IMG/VR virus record: IMGVR_UViG_2619619129_000005
Length of the DNA: 7,307 nt
Source: a virus
Lineage: Duplodnaviria > Heunggongvirae > Uroviricota > Caudoviricetes
Strand: one strand, 5' to 3'
Under the pieces are notes generated by a model. It ran no database searches. It saw nothing but the letters and a program-made list of their open reading frames with translations, and was not told where the DNA came from. This document shows positions 1 to 6,796 of this stretch, piece after piece. The number at the start of each line of letters is the position of its first letter. Within the stretch, counting starts at the first letter, position 1. A program made the translations under genes and the position numbers.

Positions 1-158
1 ATCTTGTAACAATCAGGCATACCACGGAGCTTGTTTGCTTCAATCCGGGGTGACTCAAGTACTTCAACCAGCTTCTTTTTCAACTGTTCACGTACCGTCG
101 AGCCCAGCTTTCGCCATTCCTTTAGTGCCCGCTCGTCAAAATCCAGAAAATACGCCAT
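1..158 (-). CDS. relE: RelE mRNA-interferase toxin, N-terminal 52 codons only (gene runs off the window start)
   Basis: Reverse complement of 1..158 translates MAYFLDFDERALKEWRKLGSTVREQLKKKLVEVLESPRIEANKLRGMPDCYKI, which matches the RelE N-terminus as I recall it. ATG at 158..156 overlaps the relB stop by one base (TGATG). Absent from the ORF track because no stop lies inside the window. Confidence 0.9.
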   Translation of the reverse strand, partial: MAYFLDFDERALKEWRKLGSTVREQLKKKLVEVLESPRIEANKLRGMPDCYK

Positions 159-397
159 CAGAGTTCATCCAGCGTCACACGTACTGGCTTAGGATTACGA
201 AGCCGTTCTTTCACTATCTCCACAAGTTCAGCATCTTCATCACTCAGGAGTGTCTGTTTGAACGGCAAGCGTTCATTGTCAGCGATATACTCGAGCATGA
301 GACGAAGCGCTTCAGAAGGAGTTACGCCCATTTTTTCAAGCGCGGCGTAAGAACGCGCTTTAAGTTCATCGTCAATACGCAGGTTAATGCTACCCAT
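158..397 (-). CDS. relB: RelB antitoxin (ribbon-helix-helix)
   Basis: 79-aa ORF MGSINLRIDDELKARSYAALEKMGVTPSEALRLMLEYIADNERLPFKQTLLSDEDAELVEIVKERLRNPKPVRVTLDEL, recognised as RelB. ATG at 397..395 with GAGG Shine-Dalgarno (complement of 406..409) 8 nt upstream. Immediately precedes relE. Confidence 0.93.
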   Translation of the reverse strand: MGSINLRIDDELKARSYAALEKMGVTPSEALRLMLEYIADNERLPFKQTLLSDEDAELVEIVKERLRNPKPVRVTLDEL

Positions 398-408
398 GTC
401 TTACACCT

Positions 409-434
409 CTTGTAATTACAAATGTCATTACAAG
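409..434. promoter_or_regulatory. relO-like operator of the relBE promoter
   Basis: Perfect 12-bp palindrome TTGTAATTACAA (410..421) inside a larger inverted repeat CTTGTAAT (409..416) / ATTACAAG (427..434), just upstream of the relB start on the minus strand. Repeated TTGTAA/TTACAA hexads fit the known RelB/RelE autoregulation sites. Confidence 0.6.
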
Positions 435-744
435 TATCGCACTACAACATGCTTAGGGCAAGTCACAAAGGAAGTCAGAAAGTAGTCGTAAGAACGGTGA
501 TCACTGTCCGCTTTGTGCCAGGAACGGACGTTACTACTAGCTCAAGCAAACCGCTCCTTAGCCCTTAATGAAGAATGGAGGTATTGGTATAAATAGGTGA
601 ATATCGGAATATCTCCAACAGGGAAAGGGACGTTTTTAGGGGATAACTATATTATCACCTAGTGGCCGTAAGAATATGCGCAGAGAGAACATATTTCACA
701 ACAGCCACCTTAGTTTTATGAAAAATCATAAACCGTAGGAATAT

Positions 745-1065
745 TTAAACGCATTTAAACGTCAGGCGAGCAACGCCATTAACAAGTAAGTGTGTATCAA
801 TATCAGTTCTGACTTCTTTCATAGATTTATTTTGTACCCTACAGAAATCAGAAGCCTTTTTTGTTGCAGTGCCAATAGCGCCTCGTATACGACCTGCAGC
901 AGGAGCAGCTTCTACCTCAGAGAGGTAGTTCCCATTATCCAGTTTTTTGACATCGGACTGATATGTCAGACCCAGGCCTTGAAACTGTGTTTTATCATTT
1001 TGCACAGAGCAACCGCTTAGAAAAGTACCAATTAAAATGGTGGTGGCAATTACTAATGTTTTCAT
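745..1065 (-). CDS. Putative lipoprotein (106 aa)
   Basis: ORF begins MKTLVIATTILIGTFLSGC: hydrophobic signal peptide followed by lipobox L-S-G-C with the invariant Cys, then a hydrophilic mature domain. ATG at 1065..1063, TAA stop at 747..745. Flanking DNA (about 1080..1200) is AT-rich. Not recognised as a named gene. Confidence 0.7.
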   Translation of the reverse strand: MKTLVIATTILIGTFLSGCSVQNDKTQFQGLGLTYQSDVKKLDNGNYLSEVEAAPAAGRIRGAIGTATKKASDFCRVQNKSMKEVRTDIDTHLLVNGVARLTFKCV

Positions 1066-1354
1066 GTAAAGAACAATCCTTATGTATTTGGTTAGTCTCT
1101 ATTCTACAAACTGAAATACAACATAAATTAAACCAATTGCTATTTATAGATTTGCATACAGCTATCGTATTGAATATTTAGAGAAATAAATCACACTAAC
1201 CGAAAAACAAGAACGTCAGGTGATCTGTTCCATATGATTCAGAACACATCGATGTAAACATGGATCCCTAACTTCCGCTTCTTGCTCTTAGCGGACATTA
1301 GCATAGGCTATTTACCATAACGCCTCATTACGCGCACCGCCCAGACTGACTCAG

Positions 1355-1474: not shown

Positions 1475-1885
1475 TCAATCTTTTTTATCGGGATCAGGCT
1501 TCTTTTTAGGTAACTTCGGGGGCTTAACTTGCTGATGACTTTGCGTTCGGCGCGTAAGCCAGGGATGGTCAGCTTTAGGTTTAACATAGTATTTTGAGCG
1601 TAAATCAATACGGGCATTATCCACTCGTTCATGGACACTCTTTTCATCATCCAGTGGTATAGGCTCCGGGCCATCAACATACTTTTCCCAGCCCAGCGCT
1701 TTCCCGTCATACAGAACGTTAATTTCACCGTCAAAGTTCTCGCATACAGTAACAACCGAATGCCTAAGTCGATATCCCCGGCCCTCACTGCGTACCTGAA
1801 ACGCACTGCTTTTGTACTGGAAAGTGAGATTTTTAGACAGAACGCGCTTCGCCTGTAGGCTGAAGATATAACCCAGTATTATCAA
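1475..1885 (-). CDS. Hypothetical ORF (136 aa) with no ATG; possible gene remnant
   Basis: The translation contains no methionine apart from the TTG-derived first residue (complement of 1883..1885). The middle section (GEINVLYDGKALGWEKYVDG) looks like a real protein; the C-terminus is a Lys/Pro-rich tail (KPPKLPKKKPDPDKKD). May be a C-terminal fragment of a disrupted gene. Confidence 0.3.
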   Translation of the reverse strand: MIILGYIFSLQAKRVLSKNLTFQYKSSAFQVRSEGRGYRLRHSVVTVCENFDGEINVLYDGKALGWEKYVDGPEPIPLDDEKSVHERVDNARIDLRSKYYVKPKADHPWLTRRTQSHQQVKPPKLPKKKPDPDKKD

Positions 1886-2036
1886 CGGCTCGGAAGTGTC
1901 TAGATTATCCGTGGCGATTCAATTTTGTATATCAGCAGACCTTTTCGCGTCGTGTATTCAGCATCATGCTCAAGGGCTTTTGCCAGTACCGCACATGGTT
2001 CTATCTGATTGCTATTAACCTGACATTTTGATTCGC

Positions 2037-2499: not shown

Positions 2500-3576
2500 T
2501 TACCCCCTGAAGCCCGGCGGAATTTCGTTATCCGGTTCAGAAATATGATTCACACAACGCTGGTTGTTCGTGCCGCTTACCGGGAGCAACCAGGGGTTCT
2601 CAAAATTCCGGTCCGGTCCAAAAAACGTCGTCGCTCGCTGAACAAATTCCGTTCCCGTTTTCCCGGTAGCCGCCAAGTATCTTGCGTAACGCCTCACGCC
2701 ATCCAGCATGGCTTCTGGTGGCACCCCCTCGCGTAATCTGGCCTTCCAGGCACTGAAAGCGGATTTCTTCGGGTTTGCTCCGGCACGCAACGGGTACTCC
2801 CGCCAGACCTGTTCGAACACATCCGGATAATCCACTCGTCCCACAGACTGCCCGGTGTTTTCCGGGACTACCCGATCGGCTTCCCGCTGAATGGCGGAAT
2901 CGGCTTCGGGCTGCTGCAGTTGGTGTGATTGCTCCGGCCTTGCGGTCATCACCTGCTGCACAGCGCCCGAATCGGCTTTCAGCGCATACGCTGAATCGGC
3001 TTCCGGTGTCGTGCCTGCTGGCTGACCAAGATTGACGGTCTGAACATCCCCTGCCTGGTTCGTGGCGTTTTTTACGCCATGGACCATAGTGTTTTGATCT
3101 TCTTGATCTGTATCTTTATCTGTATCTTTATCTGTCGTGACTCGTCGTGACATGTGCGTGACATTTCGTGACGCGCCGTGACAATCGCCATTTTGTTCCC
3201 GCTTTCTTTCCCTCTCTCGCTGCGCCCTCTTGCGCTCTGCAGGAGATTTTGCGGTTTGCGAAATATTGCCGTTGTCCTCTTTAAGCACCTGGCGTTTTTC
3301 CCATCCAGTGATTAAATCACCATCAAGTACCCGCCCCTGCATCGTCTGCAAAATTGAATCAATTACCTCTTCTGTCACGTCGAGCGCACTTGCCAAATCT
3401 TCTGTCGTGACATCAATGTGACCTCGCGTGACATTTCGTGACGCGCTCACCAGGAGGTGGATATACACTGCCATCACTGTTGCAATTGGCTGCCCTGACA
3501 CTCTGGCAATTGTTCGCCACTTAGGGTCATTTGGCATGTCATGCCATAATCTGAGCCAGGCGTTAGCCATACTCAC
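2500..3576 (-). CDS. Phage replication initiation / replisome-organizer protein (358 aa, lambda O-like role) with the origin inside its coding sequence
   Basis: ATG at 3576..3574 with GAGGTGA Shine-Dalgarno upstream. N-terminus MSMANAWLRLWHDMPNDPKWRTIARVSG is typical of phage initiator DNA-binding domains. A low-complexity acidic/basic linker (ERKRAQRERERKRE, DKDTDKDTD) is encoded by the tandem repeats and iterons. Sits where O-like genes sit, downstream of the cro/cII-like genes. Confidence 0.75.
   Translation of the reverse strand: MSMANAWLRLWHDMPNDPKWRTIARVSGQPIATVMAVYIHLLVSASRNVTRGHIDVTTEDLASALDVTEEVIDSILQTMQGRVLDGDLITGWEKRQVLKEDNGNISQTAKSPAERKRAQRERERKREQNGDCHGASRNVTHMSRRVTTDKDTDKDTDQEDQNTMVHGVKNATNQAGDVQTVNLGQPAGTTPEADSAYALKADSGAVQQVMTARPEQSHQLQQPEADSAIQREADRVVPENTGQSVGRVDYPDVFEQVWREYPLRAGANPKKSAFSAWKARLREGVPPEAMLDGVRRYARYLAATGKTGTEFVQRATTFFGPDRNFENPWLLPVSGTNNQRCVNHISEPDNEIPPGFRG
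3096..3182. repeat. Candidate origin, cluster 1: 12-bp tandem ATCTGTATCTTT x2.5 (3106..3135) followed by five CGTGAC iterons
   Basis: CGTGAC at 3136, 3146, 3157, 3167 and 3177, spaced 10-11 bp (one helical turn). Immediately preceded by an AT-rich hexamer-periodic tandem repeat. Lies inside the replication-initiator gene, as ori-lambda lies inside O. Confidence 0.6.
3374..3446. repeat. Candidate origin, cluster 2: four (C/T)GTGAC iterons plus one inverted copy
   Basis: CGTGAC at 3406, 3427 and 3437, TGTGAC at 3417, spaced 10-11 bp; inverted GTCACG at 3374..3379. The 21-mer GCGTGACATTTCGTGACGCGC is identical at 3426..3446 and 3156..3176. TCTGTCGTGAC is identical at 3131..3141 and 3401..3411. 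Confidence 0.6.
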
Positions 3577-3641
3577 CTCTTCTGATACCGAATCTTTTTA
3601 CTCACGAGTTGCCGGAAGCGATTCGATATGGCTATTGTCAG

Positions 3642-4067
3642 TCAATGTACTGCCACAGCATTTCCTGCCGGGCCACCACGGTTCATCTGATTGAAACCGG
3701 CGATTGCCACTGCGACAAAATCATCAGCGTCTCTCACCAGTCGCTCCCGCGTCTCCACCAGCTCCCGAAAATAAGCTGAACTGTGGCTGCGCATTCTGGC
3801 CACCAGCAAAGGTGGCATTGCCTTTTCGATCGCTGGTAACAACGCCTGAATTTTTTCAACTGCATCAGGGGTGTCTTTCTCTACCCAGCGGAAAATTTTC
3901 TGGGTATTGCGAGCCAGGGCTTCCGGATGGCTGTCGTCATACAGTTCCGGGAACGTCATTCCCAGCTCGAAATACGCTTTGGTAATTTTCGCAGCCGGTA
4001 CTTTTTCGCCGTCCGGATGCGCCCAGGCATTCATCGCCATGCGGATGTGTTCATGCTTGATTTTCAT
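3642..4067 (-). CDS. ydaT: YdaT-like protein (141 aa); family once proposed as a toxin, later reported to act as a CII-like regulator
   Basis: ORF MKIKHEHIRMAMNAWAHPDGEKVP... resembles Rac-prophage YdaT as I recall it; length and position (immediately after the Cro-like gene) match. Its ATG (4067..4065) overlaps the upstream gene stop (ATGA), indicating translational coupling. Confidence 0.65.
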   Translation of the reverse strand: MKIKHEHIRMAMNAWAHPDGEKVPAAKITKAYFELGMTFPELYDDSHPEALARNTQKIFRWVEKDTPDAVEKIQALLPAIEKAMPPLLVARMRSHSSAYFRELVETRERLVRDADDFVAVAIAGFNQMNRGGPAGNAVAVH

Positions 4068-4279
4068 GAATCATTCTTTCCTTCGTTCGAGGTGCTATCC
4101 TGCTTCTTGTAAAGTTCTGGGTTGTATTTCAATTCACCGTTAGTAATTTCATCCAGTTCCATTGCGCGAAGTTTGGGAATAACTGCTTTCCACCGCACAA
4201 CAGCCACATGTGAAATTCCAAGAGCCTCAGCTACTAGTCGCTTTTTTTTGAAATAGCGCAGAACATCATCTTTGAACAT
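4064..4279 (-). CDS. Cro-like HTH protein of the YdaS/DicC family (71 aa)
   Basis: ORF MFKDDVLRYFKKKRLVAEALGISHVAVVRWKAVIPKLRAMELDEITNGELKYNPELYKK... with HTH signature (LGISHVAVVRW). ATG at 4279..4277 with AGGAG (complement of 4286..4290) 6 nt upstream. Divergent from the repressor gene. Confidence 0.8.
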   Translation of the reverse strand: MFKDDVLRYFKKKRLVAEALGISHVAVVRWKAVIPKLRAMELDEITNGELKYNPELYKKQDSTSNEGKNDS

Positions 4280-4370
4280 AAAACTCTCCTGTTATTCCGA
4301 GCAGGAGGGTAACAATAGTTACATAGCAATGTCAACCATAGCAACATCACTTGGTAGTAACATTGGTTAC
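4280..4370. promoter_or_regulatory. Divergent OR-like region with two GTAAC-N4-GTTAC operator palindromes
   Basis: GTAAC-AATA-GTTAC at 4309..4322 and GTAAC-ATTG-GTTAC at 4357..4370, centres 48 bp apart. TTGACA on the minus strand (complement of 4330..4335) is a candidate -35 for the Cro-side promoter. The 91-bp gap between divergent start codons is typical of an immunity switch. Confidence 0.55.
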
Positions 4371-5045
4371 ATGAAAAACACTATCAGCGAACGTATTCGG
4401 AATCGTCGAAAAGACGTTGGATTAACCCAACAGCAGGTTGCGAAAGCAATCGGCATATCTCGTGTATCCGTAACAAAATGGGAAAATGGCTCTTCAAAAC
4501 CTGACGGTGAGAATTTGCATCTACTGTCAAAATTGCTTTCCAAATCTCCTGAATGGATTCTTTATGGAAAGGACGGTCACGATAAAACCGATGATCTGCG
4601 TCTGAATCAGTATCTTTACATTAGTGACAACATCGCCCGGTTGCCCGTTTTAACGTGGGAACAGGCTGGTTATTGGGATATGAGTTGTCCAGTAACCGAG
4701 ATTCCTGGCATTAAGAATTGGGTTGATGTCATGACAAAAACCGCTGAAAACTCTTTTTTATTGCATGTTGAGGGAGATGCGATGACAAACTCTAACGGCC
4801 TCCCAACCATCCCCGATGGATCTACCGTGCTGATCACACCATGCTCAAGTAACATTAGAGAACTGGTGGGAAAAATAATCTTAATCCAATTGGAAGGAAC
4901 GCCAAACGTAACACTAAAAAAAGTTGCGATTGACGGACCAAACATCTATCTGTTGTCACTGAATCCGCTTTACAAACCCATCGAACTGAATGGTGGTTAC
5001 ACCATTAAAGGTAAAGTTTCACAAATACATCAATACTTAGACTGA
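4371..5045 (+). CDS. dicA: Prophage repressor: DicA-like HTH N-domain plus LexA/CI-type S24 C-domain, with Ala at the catalytic Ser position
   Basis: N-terminus MKNTISERIRNRRKDVGLTQQQVAKAIGISRVSVTKWENG resembles DicA as I recall it. C-domain LLHVEGDAMTNSNG...TLKKVA...LNPLYKPIELNGGYTIKGKV aligns by eye with lambda CI (VEGNSMTAPTG...FKKL...LNPQYPMI...VVGKV). Start placed at ATG 4371 so both operators stay intergenic (leaderless, like lambda cI from PRM). Alternative starts: ATG 4329 and TTG 4272 (ORF-track start). The symbol is by family resemblance only; K-12 DicA is shorter and lacks the C-domain. Confidence 0.75.
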   Translation: MKNTISERIRNRRKDVGLTQQQVAKAIGISRVSVTKWENGSSKPDGENLHLLSKLLSKSPEWILYGKDGHDKTDDLRLNQYLYISDNIARLPVLTWEQAGYWDMSCPVTEIPGIKNWVDVMTKTAENSFLLHVEGDAMTNSNGLPTIPDGSTVLITPCSSNIRELVGKIILIQLEGTPNVTLKKVAIDGPNIYLLSLNPLYKPIELNGGYTIKGKVSQIHQYLD

Positions 5046-5050
5046 GTCAG

Positions 5051-5075
5051 AACCCGCATTCATTGCGGGTTTTTC
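5051..5075 (+). terminator. Rho-independent terminator after the repressor gene
   Basis: Stem AACCCGCA (5051..5058) / TGCGGGTT (5064..5071), 5-nt loop, followed by TTTTT (5070..5074). Starts 6 nt after the repressor stop (5043..5045). Confidence 0.7.
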
Positions 5076-5107
5076 ACGCTCTCAAATGTACCTTTTGCAA
5101 CATCGTA

Positions 5108-5136
5108 TTGACTCGAAAGGTAACTCTTGTTACCTT
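5108..5136 (+). promoter_or_regulatory. OL/PL-like promoter-operator for the rightward ydfA-dicB operon
   Basis: Perfect 20-bp palindrome AAGGTAAC-TCTT-GTTACCTT (5117..5136), sharing the GTAAC/GTTAC half-sites with the OR palindromes. TTGACT (5108..5113) is a candidate -35 and TACCTT (5131..5136, 17-bp spacer) a weak -10. Position after the repressor terminator mirrors lambda cI-tL-OL/PL. Confidence 0.55.
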
Positions 5137-5317
5137 AACGGCATGCCAACCCACCCCGCCCCACAGAATGCAGGGCAATACTTCGAGTTACCAGGCAGTG
5201 GTCAGGGGTTAAGTAGCCAGCCCGAGGCGTAAGAACATGACGGCAGGGTTCAACTTTAATAACTATGCAGCAGGTTTTTGTTCCGCTACCCCGGCGTTAA
5301 GGGGAAATGAGGTCAGC

Positions 5318-5473
5318 ATGGATACTATCGATCTTGGCAACAGCGAATCTCTGGTATGTGGCGTGTTCCCCAACCAGGACGGTACGTTCACCGCGATGAC
5401 GTATACCAAAAGCAAAACGTTTAAAACCGAAAATGGTGCCCGTCGCTGGCTGGAAAGAAACTCAGGTGAGTGA
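5318..5473 (+). CDS. ydfA: Small prophage protein (51 aa), YdfA/YdaF-like
   Basis: ATG 5318 with GAGGT (5309..5313) upstream; product MDTIDLGNSESLVCGVFPNQDGTFTAMTYTKSKTFKTENGARRWLERNSGE. Size and position (first gene after the OL-like operator) match K-12 ydfA. The ORF-track version starts earlier at 5237 (78 aa), an alternative. Symbol is by size and synteny, not verified by alignment. Confidence 0.6.
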   Translation: MDTIDLGNSESLVCGVFPNQDGTFTAMTYTKSKTFKTENGARRWLERNSGE

Positions 5474-5474
5474 T

Positions 5475-5603
5475 ATGGATTTTGACACAATCATGGAAAA
5501 GGCTTACGAAGAATACTTCGAAGGCCTTGCCGAAGGCGAAGAAGCTCACAGCTTCAACGAATTTAAACAGGTGCTTTCCAGTTCGGCAAAATCTAACGGC
5601 TGA
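5475..5603 (+). CDS. ydfB: Small acidic prophage protein (42 aa), YdfB/YdaG-like
   Basis: ATG 5475 one base after the preceding stop (TGATATG) with AGGTGAG Shine-Dalgarno; product MDFDTIMEKAYEEYFEGLAEGEEAHSFNEFKQVLSSSAKSNG; stop TGA 5601..5603. Below the ORF-track size cutoff. Symbol by size and synteny. Confidence 0.6.
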   Translation: MDFDTIMEKAYEEYFEGLAEGEEAHSFNEFKQVLSSSAKSNG

Positions 5604-5632
5604 TAAGCGAAACAGCACCGCGAGGAATCAGT

Positions 5633-5851
5633 ATGCAGAAACGAGAACCCGTCATCATCGCGCCAGACTATACCGATGATGAACTTTATGAGTGGATGCG
5701 CCAGAAAATTAATGCAGCGCAGGATCTGAAATGGGCTAATGAAGCCAGGGTTAAGCAGGCTGAAAATCTGTCCGCTCTGGAGCAGGATATCACCAATCTG
5801 GAAAAAGCAGCGGCATTAAGCATTGCCAGAATGATTACATACCCGCGTTAA
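5633..5851 (+). CDS. ydfC: Small prophage protein (72 aa), YdfC-like
   Basis: ATG 5633 with GAGGA 6-7 nt upstream; product MQKREPVIIAPDYTDDELYEWMRQKINAAQDLKWANEARVKQAENLSALEQDITNLEKAAALSIARMITYPR. Size and position match K-12 ydfC; symbol by synteny. Confidence 0.65.
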   Translation: MQKREPVIIAPDYTDDELYEWMRQKINAAQDLKWANEARVKQAENLSALEQDITNLEKAAALSIARMITYPR

Positions 5852-6192
5852 TAGATAACCAACGAAGCTAAGGTTGGTAATTAAGGAGTTCTCCACGGGT
5901 GAGGTGGAGTGCGTGCGCCGGACACGGGTGAGCATCCGGCACTGACAGTTTACTGAAAGGATATTTCCCTGAAAAGTCAGACCATAACGCGAAAGCGCAC
6001 GGCGAGGTAGCTGGTTCATAGATAGCCTGTCGTTAAATTTTCGTCGACCGTGCGCTTCCGGTTGTGGCAATCCGCGAAATGGCGCGGCGGTAAGTATGGC
6101 GGGGGTATTCCTTCCCCCGTTGAGGACACCGGGTTGTCAGGTTGACCATACGCTTAAGTGACAACCCCGCTGCAACGCCCTCTGTTATCAAT

Positions 6193-6250
6193 TTTCTGGT
6201 GACGTTTGGCGGTATCAGTTTTACTCCGTGACTGCTCTGCCGCCCTTTTT
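6193..6250 (+). ncRNA. dicF: DicF-like small RNA (about 53 nt) with intrinsic terminator
   Basis: TTTCTGGTGACGTTTGGCGGTATCAGTTTTACTCCGTGACTGCTCTGCCGCCC (6193..6245) followed by TTTTT (6246..6250). GGCGG (6209..6213) pairs with CCGCC (6240..6244). The sequence agrees with my recollection of K-12 DicF and sits in the long gap between ydfC and dicB. Exact 5' end is uncertain because it is made by processing. Confidence 0.6.
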
Positions 6251-6419
6251 AAAGTGAATTTTGTGATGCGGTGAATGCGGCTAAGCGCACGCGGAACAGT
6301 TAAAACCAAAAACAGTGTTATGGGTGGATTCTCTGTATCCGACGTTAATTGTTAACTGGTTAACGTCACCTGGAGGCACCAGGCACTGCATCACAAAATT
6401 CATTGTTGAGGACGCGATA

Positions 6420-6608
6420 ATGAAAACGTTATTACCAAACGTTAATACGTCTGAAGGTTGTTTTGAAATTGGTGTCACTATCAGTAACCCTGTATTTACT
6501 GAAGATGCCATTAACAAGAGAAAACAAGAACGGGAGCTATTAAATAAAATATGCATTGTTTCAATGCTGGCTCGTTTACGTCTAATGCCAAAAGGATGTG
6601 CACAATGA
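6420..6608 (+). CDS. dicB: Cell-division inhibitor DicB (62 aa)
   Basis: Product MKTLLPNVNTSEGCFEIGVTISNPVFTEDAINKRKQERELLNKICIVSMLARLRLMPKGCAQ matches DicB as I recall it. ATG 6420 with GAGGA (6408..6412) 7 nt upstream. The ORF-track version (from 6315) includes an unlikely 5' extension. Confidence 0.85.
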   Translation: MKTLLPNVNTSEGCFEIGVTISNPVFTEDAINKRKQERELLNKICIVSMLARLRLMPKGCAQ

Positions 6609-6796
6609 ATTCAGCATTTGCGCTTGTTCTGACAGTTTTTCTTGTTTCCGGAGTGTCAGTTGATATTGCAGTCAGTGTTCACAGGACAATGCAGGAGTGT
6701 ATGACTGCAGCAACCGAACAGAAAATTCCCGGTAACTGTTACCCGGTCGATAAAGTTATTCACCAGGATAATATCGAAATCCCGGCAGGTCTTTAA
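6605..6796 (+). CDS. ydfD: Small membrane protein YdfD-like (63 aa), reported lysis-type protein
   Basis: ATG 6605 overlaps the dicB stop (ATGA); product MNSAFALVLTVFLVSGVSVDIAVSVHRTMQECMTAATEQKIPGNCYPVDKVIHQDNIEIPAGL with an N-terminal hydrophobic helix. Size and position match K-12 ydfD. Confidence 0.75.
   Translation: MNSAFALVLTVFLVSGVSVDIAVSVHRTMQECMTAATEQKIPGNCYPVDKVIHQDNIEIPAGL

Follow-up and report, generated by a model that had tools for sequence, protein, structure and literature searches.

A YegR-family lipoprotein gene as the probable cargo of a palindrome-bounded, low-GC cassette in a Qin-like prophage

We consider a small lipoprotein gene carried by a Caudoviricetes record (IMGVR_UViG_2619619129_000005), whose whole stretch of 7,307 nucleotides is referred to here as the window. 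By its list of open reading frames (ORFs) and their family matches, the 7.3-kb window is the early and immunity region of an Escherichia coli Qin-like lambdoid prophage. The gene, on the minus strand, belongs by its sequence to the YegR family. The explanation that we favor, with a probability of about 0.7, is that this lipoprotein is the cargo of a discrete cassette of low GC (guanine plus cytosine) content that is bounded by two short palindromes. The cassette is about 0.79 kb long (window 506-1296) and holds, besides the gene with its AT-rich leader, some 220 bp on the 3' side.

The limits of the cassette can be seen by comparing the window with the Qin prophage of E. coli K-12. The two share 99.6-100% identity over 1-523 and from 1270 onward, and between these positions 970 bp of K-12 DNA (most of ydfV, flxA and 230 bp beyond) is replaced by the segment that carries the lipoprotein gene. 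In both K-12 and NCTC9699, the latter being the best complete-genome match to the whole window yet covering only 82% of it, the slot is filled with ydfV-flxA and the lipoprotein gene is absent. The palindromes A and B, however, are at the same places in these two genomes, where they enclose ydfV'-flxA. With the same palindromes and different content, the two prophage variants differ by the cargo of one cassette. The same limits appear in other backgrounds, since homology to the window spans 507/515 to 1296/1299 in Serratia sp. H1w (89% identity), in Hafnia (79%) and in the Klebsiella plasmid pKP1-19 (99.6%), with flanks that are unrelated beyond the cassette ends. The truncated ydfV' ORF of the window is probably not a gene here, and a ydfV frame that runs from the backbone over palindrome A raises doubt whether ydfV of K-12 is a real gene.

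The cassette is also distinct in composition. The region 1080-1200, which the earlier note had described as AT-rich, contains 25.6% GC and is the minimum of the window, about 3 standard deviations (sd) under the mean, which is 46.7% (sd 6.7%, 121-bp windows). Of the 7187 windows of this size, just 12 reach so low a value, and each of them overlaps this region. The stretch lies 5' of the gene on the coding strand, so the wording "upstream region" is correct. The GC content is 40.5% in the coding sequence (CDS) and 37.7% in the replaced segment, against 46-48% in the flanks, which is the local deviation on which the earlier note had made its proposal depend. In 8 of 10 contexts of the family, the GC content is 20-34% over the 150 bp upstream of the gene, and that of the CDS is lower than the local value. 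The AT-rich leader is thus a property of the family, as one would predict for genes gained by horizontal transfer, which are often silenced by H-NS.

Cassette DNA at 99% identity or more is found on 86 plasmids (76 from Klebsiella, the others from Enterobacter and Citrobacter), and the Klebsiella variant of the protein is encoded on at least 1000 contigs. Among 5426 complete E. coli genomes, the replacing DNA occurs in one, on a plasmid between fragments of insertion sequences (IS), and the phage records contain no near copy of the cassette. The exact lipoprotein sequence is present on 30 Escherichia coli contigs, with a Qin-like context in all six of the places displayed. A longer copy is found on the multidrug-resistance plasmid pCF10-tmexCD1 of Citrobacter youngae (4455-6674 of locus L004), which contains window 1-1313 including relE-relB and the cassette, with an interruption by IS1 and with IS5 and IS26 cutting it at the ends. 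This copy is a captured fragment of the prophage variant of the window. The same plasmid has a palindrome doublet at 9442-9507 of the locus, adjoining tet(A).

We turn our attention to the protein. The earlier note had pointed to a clean lipobox protein located between the toxin-antitoxin locus and the phage early genes, and both parts of that description hold: the translation gives LSGC ending at Cys19, with relB on the left and the genes from DUF977 to CI on the right. The N-terminus consists of Lys2, uncharged hydrophobic residues 3-15 and the lipobox, which fits [LVI][ASTVI][GAS]C inside the first ~35 residues, and the residue at +2 after Cys19 is Ser, not Asp. The lipobox also fits the lipoprotein rule of the PROSITE PS51257 type. 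The coordinates of these and the other features are collected in Table 1.

Table 1. Features of the window (positions are those of the whole stretch)
Feature	Position	Strand	Basis and remarks
relE, partial	1-160		adjoins relB
relB antitoxin	158-397	-	Pfam RelB, E 1e-32; 99.6% identity to K-12
Truncated ydfV' ORF, 48 aa	422-568	+	starts in backbone, crosses palindrome A; C-terminus altered
Palindrome A, GTCCGCT-ttgtgccagg-AACGGAC	506-529		3' end of cassette; Serratia, Hafnia and plasmid homology starts here
Segment replacing 970 bp of K-12 Qin	524-1269		BLAST breakpoints 523/524 and 1269/1270; junction alignment
YegR-family prolipoprotein CDS, 106 aa, starts MKTLVIATTILIGTFLSGC	745-1065 (stop codon included)	-	ORF list; PF27694
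Predicted signal peptide (residues 1-18) and Cys19 codon	1009-1065	-	translation
Lipobox L16-S17-G18-C19 (LSGC)	1009-1020	-	translation; Cys19 invariant in 34 homologues
AT-rich 5' leader/promoter region of cassette	1066-1269	-	31% GC; 26.7% in 1066-1200
Shine-Dalgarno-like AAGGA	1077-1081	-	11 nt before ATG; AGGA kept in Serratia and Hafnia
Candidate -10 hexamer TAGAAT, weak	1101-1106	-	aligned column reads TAGAAT in Serratia, TATAAT in Hafnia
Palindrome B, TTCCGCT-tcttgctctt-AGCGGAC	1273-1296		5' end of cassette; Serratia, Hafnia and plasmid homology ends here
Remnant of IS1202-family ISEsa1-like transposase, residues 299-430	1475-1915	-	NCBIfam ISNCY_2; tblastn against intact NCTC9699 copy
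P22-Cro-like gene	4064-4279	-	
CI-like repressor with S24 peptidase domain, full-length	4332-5045	+	
DicF antisense small RNA	6194-6245	+	Rfam RF00039, 76.7 bits; upstream of dicB
dicB	6420-6608	+	
ydfD	6605-6796	+	

The family assignment comes from two sides. The Pfam family PF27694 (YegR) is precomputed for the exact sequence in a large protein collection, and BLASTP against YegR of E. coli K-12 (b2085, NC_000913) gives 45% identity over 102 residues with an E-value of 2e-24. The family name is taken from the precomputed annotations, as the local Pfam copy has no YegR model; the local Pfam and NCBIfam libraries give no match for the lipoprotein, Lambda_Bor included, and its sole PHROG match is a family without assigned function. 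The YegR family is small, with 67 clusters at 90% identity in a word-indexed search. A profile search over 1.84 billion representatives finds 53 clusters (50% identity) at E <= 1e-3, of which 17 reach E <= 1e-10; some of the weak matches are to long repetitive proteins and are probably spurious. The length is nearly constant, with almost all members at 105-108 aa. The members come from Acinetobacter and the Enterobacterales, the latter represented by Serratia, Hafnia, Rahnella, Yersinia, an Erwinia-like genus, Salmonella, Cedecea, Shimwellia, Klebsiella and Citrobacter.

An alignment of 34 members has invariant positions along the whole protein (Cys19, Gly30, Gly32, Leu33, Glu52, Ala54, Pro55, Ala63, Cys75, Asn96-Gly-Val-Ala99, Phe103 and Cys105), and the window protein contains both motifs of the family, EAAPxAGR and the C-terminal NGVARLTFxC. 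The differences at codon positions 1/2/3 number 9/5/38 relative to the Erwinia-like gene and 20/5/52 relative to the Yersinia gene, and this concentration of the divergence at third positions indicates that the gene is under purifying selection. The CDS is also better preserved than the cassette flanks, at 93.5% versus 84-88% identity in Serratia and 90.0% versus 71-77% in Hafnia. An AlphaFold2 model built with the 34 homologues has a mean predicted local distance difference test (pLDDT) score of 82.9; residues 31-106 score above 90, and the low values fall on residues 20-30, which read as a tether. The predicted domain contains strands at 33-36 and 47-53, a helix at 60-76 and strands at 82-92 and 96-105. 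The ORF could alternatively be a non-functional hitchhiker or a chance reading frame in AT-rich DNA, as its annotation is only "hypothetical protein" and no promoter consensus was found. The constant length, the motifs that are invariant across Enterobacterales and Acinetobacter, the codon-position bias and the confident predicted fold make this very improbable. On the sequence evidence, it is a real gene of the YegR family.

The next question is in what surroundings the homologues are found. The Salmonella homologue (59% identity) belongs to prophages with a P22-type portal, in which it is encoded antisense, with the GH19 endolysin gene on one side and Rz on the other; this is a classical moron position. 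An Erwinia-like copy (89% identity) is located between cheV and fliE, 4 kb from a prophage remnant, and the Yersinia copies are in a chromosomal island near invasin and type III secretion system genes. The Hafnia copies are in integrase-bounded islands, the Shimwellia copy is beside a Transposase_31 gene, and the Acinetobacter copy is chromosomal. Every context that we examined is accessory and variable, and many are not phage. No neighbor is conserved across them, so a gene of the YegR type stands alone. The single "phage" record with a YegR gene (ON470606) is a P2-like prophage prediction that includes the host flanks (yegS, gatR) and provides no evidence for a phage-borne YegR gene.

With these contexts, the classification of the gene as a prophage add-on, or moron, is well supported: it is extra with respect to related prophages at the same position, and its composition differs from that of its neighbors. 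The homology search, moreover, leads to YegR as an accessory family and not to the housekeeping lipoprotein family that would have spoken against the earlier note. The position of the Salmonella homologue beside Rz, together with the small, outer-membrane-type character of the lipoprotein, could suggest a part in the lysis machinery resembling an o-spanin. We give this hardly any credence, because the gene of the window is far from the lysis genes, the Salmonella copy is on the opposite strand, other copies are in non-phage loci, and the mature protein is globular with 88 residues. The o-spanins are short proline-rich peptides embedded in Rz, unlike the protein of the window.

The founding member of the family is YegR of K-12. 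It resembles the window protein in length (105 versus 106 aa), in lipobox (MSGC versus LSGC), in the C-terminal GVARLTFKC motif and in the positions of the Cys residues, and its gene likewise has low GC and an AT-rich leader and adjoins mobile DNA (the P2-like remnant ogrK-yegZ). It differs in locus and regulation and is not flanked by A/B palindromes. The yegR promoter is among those strongly bound by the acid-resistance regulator EvgA, with a role "to be investigated" (PMC8147483), and in one transcriptome (PMC5811628) yegR is induced ~12-fold along with ydeO, yfdX, frc and oxc. An EvgA-box-like palindrome, TTCCTACTTATGTAGGAA, is located ~115 nt upstream of yegR. The protein has been detected as a predicted lipoprotein in membrane fractions of O157:H7 (PMC3210124) and, in infected macrophages, among the E. 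coli proteins carried by exosomes (PMC9973271), and yegR insertions are depleted under gentamicin in one transposon-sequencing library (PMC10879529).

These reports lead to an explanation in which the lipoprotein protects the envelope against stress (acid, bile or antimicrobial tolerance) as the equivalent of chromosomal YegR carried by mobile DNA. The 45% identity to K-12 YegR extends over the full length, yegR, reported to be a direct EvgA target, is induced with the acid-resistance genes (PMC8147483; PMC5811628), the gentamicin result points the same way (PMC10879529), and the cassette is widespread on Klebsiella plasmids. The papers on YegR that we consulted, however, demonstrate no phenotype of the protein itself, an identity of 45% does not guarantee the same partner or role, and the window has no EvgA box, so the regulation of K-12 yegR is not transferable. 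Protection against stress is thus a possibility that we take seriously but would not bet on.

Several results weigh against the reading of the lipoprotein as the cargo of a mobile, self-expressed cassette. Neither a target-site duplication nor an empty site is found for the cassette, and its right boundary in pKP1-19 may coincide with an IS3-family insertion. A consensus scan of 400-1500 gives no full sigma-70 promoter and no intrinsic terminator, and the EvgA box TTCYTACANNTGTARGAA has 0 matches in the window at up to 3 mismatches. The lipidation, the outer-membrane sorting and the disulfide are all deduced from the amino acids. The model has no significant fold match in the PDB or in the viral structure set (BFVD), a sequence-profile search of the PDB gives no match to the lipoprotein, and its best match among the PADLOC defence models has an E-value of only 0.02.

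From the sequence and the established lipoprotein pathway of E. coli, a route for the protein can be proposed. The precursor would be exported by Sec, receive a diacylglyceryl group from Lgt at Cys19, be cleaved by signal peptidase II and be N-acylated; with Ser at +2, Lol would deliver it to the outer membrane, on the inner leaflet. From this anchor, a flexible linker of ~12 residues would tether the compact 75-residue beta-beta-alpha-beta-beta domain in the periplasm, probably locked by a Cys75-Cys105 disulfide, and the lipoprotein would serve as a lysogenic-conversion factor on the cell envelope. As to its origin, the YegR cassette has taken the place of the ydfV'-flxA cassette between the same two palindromes of Qin, and it has spread to many plasmids of Klebsiella as well as to chromosomes of Serratia and Hafnia.

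Transcription would come from a weak promoter of its own, probably silenced by H-NS or dependent on an activator, with a contribution of read-through from the early rightward operon. The gene is co-oriented with cro, ydaT, the replication genes (O), DUF977 and relBE, which makes read-through from the early rightward promoter on induction plausible. The 3' untranslated part of the cassette (560-745, minus strand) is strongly structured, with a folding energy of -46.7 kcal/mol (z = -3.6 versus shuffled controls), and folds into two long stems with no U-tract. On the plus strand, a U-rich run follows the longer of these stems, which makes this stem a possible terminator of convergent transcription.

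We now consider the palindromes that bound the cassette. Both are 24 nt long with a 7-10-7 design, and jointly they make a 29-nt inverted repeat of 76% identity (with 1269-1297). Their general forms are GTCCGCT-N3-GGCAC-N2-AGCGGAC for A and GTCCGCT-N2-GAGCGA-N2-AGCGGAC for B. Palindrome B is at the same time the terminal repeat of the neighboring ISEsa1-like IS, on its transposase-distal end. In four independent ISEsa1-like copies (NCTC9699 and three plasmids), the shared homology starts exactly at (T/C)GTCCGCT. The intact element of NCTC9699 is ~1.66 kb long (locus L005, 3494-5160) with a transposase of 446 aa (3699-5039). The Serratia and Hafnia cassette loci have no ISEsa1-like transposase within 6 kb. 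The ends of IS1202-family elements start with TGT (bioRxiv 10.1101/2022.12.17.520857), and ISEsa1 is reported to be 1609 bp long and to make no target duplication (PMC10132070). In Table 8 of the same paper (PMC10132070), an ISKpn65 insertion (MK552108) is located 5 bp from a non-dif "site" ending in TTATGTCCGCT, which matches the first palindrome arm. This is a hint that insertion beside palindromes also occurs with other members of the IS1202 family.

Other identities for the palindromes were considered. For palindrome B, a 27-28-bp target duplication of the IS1202 type is rejected, as it is one-sided in the four independent IS copies. Xer/dif sites are rejected because the palindromes have no XerC or XerD arms. 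Integron attC sites are rejected as well, as the cores are only loosely matched (CCCTAAC, with GTTAGGG on the other strand), the window has no integrase and the breakpoints are misplaced. Rfam has no family at the palindrome doublets.

The palindromes are not limited to this prophage. In a Hafnia island (locus L029, 699-9850), 8 palindromes within 9 kb, all with 10-nt loops, separate unrelated genes, and they often form A-18 nt-B doublets in which the spacer is conserved. Exact-pattern scans of IMG/VR give at least 120 matches for each type, and in the loci that were fetched most of the short gaps belong to A+/B+ doublets offset by 42 nt. At distances of 0.3-4 kb there are 83 non-redundant pairs of successive palindromes, and 65 of them show the orientation of the window (A-, B-). 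The other three A/B orientation classes have one pair each, so that the loop orientation is direct in 65 of 68 A/B pairs, which argues against simple terminal inverted repeats of a transposon. As the loci were chosen by their palindrome patterns, the co-occurrence of A and B is biased, but the orientation skew is not. Eighty such cassettes, with a median length of 1.5 kb, vary widely in their longest ORF, for which 63 distinct ones are found. Their cargo, some of it of the defence type, includes three reverse transcriptases of the retron/DRT type, domains of the TIR, HEPN, GmrSD, DpnII-type nuclease, Macro and deaminase kinds, and GNAT, HAD, LysR and glyoxalase proteins. One P2-like locus has two cassettes directly before the tail-sheath gene, which is the Z/fun slot of P2, and in phage P2 itself the A palindrome (15335-15358, after gene G) and the B palindrome (17432-17455, before the pF region) enclose fun(Z), annotated as blocking T5. 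In another locus (L107, 2775-6702), the stretch from B to the next A encodes two tyrosine recombinases of 335 and 707 aa (3544-6674) in addition to an ORF of 125 aa, a gene set that we take to be Tn554-like; it is possible that this stretch is an autonomous relative of the palindrome doublets.

This cargo brings us to superinfection exclusion, one of the functions that the earlier note had in mind. From the periplasmic face of the outer membrane, the lipoprotein would make a receptor inaccessible or inactive, or would prevent the entry of DNA, in the manner of Cor and Llp with FhuA. In its favor, the gene is prophage cargo, its Salmonella homologue is an antisense moron in a lysis cassette, and cassettes with the same palindromes fill the Z/fun slot of P2 and carry reverse transcriptases (retron/DRT) along with TIR, HEPN, GmrSD and restriction-enzyme domains. 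Since the same type of cassette also carries GNAT, HAD, LysR and glyoxalase proteins, the association with defence is weak evidence. The protein resembles none of the known exclusion or defence proteins in sequence or fold, many of its homologues lie outside phage loci, and K-12 YegR is in an acid-stress regulon (PMC8147483). We consider exclusion unlikely. The label "lipoprotein moron next to relBE" survives on the slot, the composition, the discrete unit and the Salmonella homologue, while the exclusion or host-interaction function attached to it finds no direct support. The probability that remains beyond exclusion and stress protection belongs to unknown envelope roles.

A broader reading can be built on the palindromes, which we hold as tentative and rather doubtful. 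In it, a cassette system of wide distribution, with an integron-like logic and different sites, would recombine at them, served by an IS1202-family transposase, a tyrosine-recombinase pair or both. The system would carry morons of one gene, and genes for anti-phage defence, from place to place among P2-like hotspots, lambdoid prophages, islands and plasmids of the Enterobacterales, and would be the mechanism of the "rapid swapping" at defence hotspots, with the YegR-type lipoprotein as one cargo acting in phage exclusion. Such repeats may already have been described by Nilsson et al. in 2004, in a paper that is cited for the two variable loci of P2 and names site-specific recombination in its title. 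Publications of 2022 and 2026 on phage defence hotspots do not mention palindromes, hairpins or inverted repeats.

The rest of the window is consistent with a Qin-like prophage. To the right of the lipoprotein ORF, the minus strand encodes DUF977, a replisome-organiser-like gene, YdaT and the Cro-like gene, and the plus strand encodes the CI-like repressor, ydfA/B/C, the DicF RNA, dicB, ydfD and ydfE. The immunity region of K-12 Qin has the short DicA/DicC pair in place of the full-length CI-like repressor and P22-Cro-like gene of the window, and the prophage variant of the window looks less decayed than K-12 Qin. The replisome-organiser-like gene holds a short tandem run (tctgtatctttatctgtatctttatctgt) within 3095-3190, and a 46-bp sequence with recurring GTGACA motifs is repeated at 3131-3176 and 3401-3446 with 85% identity. 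The repeats inside this gene are possibly origin iterons.

By itself, the lipoprotein gene is a modest addition, another envelope lipoprotein on a prophage that is also common on Klebsiella plasmids. The 0.79-kb cassette with its defined ends, on the other hand, is a precise and testable unit that would offer a first way into what the YegR family does. A more interesting lead than the gene are the boundary palindromes, as they bracket fun(Z) of P2 and dozens of unrelated genes on prophage contigs, defence-type genes among them; if they are recombination sites, they would explain the fast exchange of cargo.

It remains to compare the cassette with known systems. Bor of lambda, Cor of phi80 and N15 and Llp of T5 are, like the window protein, small accessory phage lipoproteins that are thought to act at the outer membrane. 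They have no sequence likeness to it (Pfam Lambda_Bor) and are not among its structural hits in PDB or BFVD, and their genes are restricted to phages, whereas the YegR family is also on chromosomal islands and plasmids.

The transporter IS of the IS1202 family (tISKpn21, tISKpn65, tISRel10) and ISEsa1 resemble the window in having a passenger ORF beside the transposase. The IS end of the window, (T/C)GTCCGCT, is consistent with the TGT of the family, and a target duplication is absent, as reported for ISEsa1. Unlike in the transporter IS, the transposase of the window is a remnant, the Serratia and Hafnia cassettes have none, and the loops are direct, not inverted; the combination by which an IS1202 transporter is recognized (a cognate transposase plus a target duplication or an empty site) is not found for the cassette.

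Integron cassettes and the pdif modules of Acinetobacter share with the palindrome cassettes the content of one or few genes, the short structured repeats, the arrays and the diverse cargo. The palindrome cassettes differ from both in their 7-10-7 palindromes, without XerC/D arms, RYYYAAC/GTTRRRY cores or an IntI gene, and from integrons in having their breakpoints at the outer palindrome edges and not at G/TT.

The fun(Z) region of P2 has an unrelated cargo, a 528-aa protein that blocks T5, belongs to a P2-like and not a lambdoid phage, and has a degenerate B palindrome with 4 arm mismatches. The arrangement, however, is that of the window: an A-type palindrome on the 3' side and a B-type palindrome on the promoter side, with the gene on the minus strand when written from A to B, and a cargo of low-GC foreign DNA placed between backbone operons.

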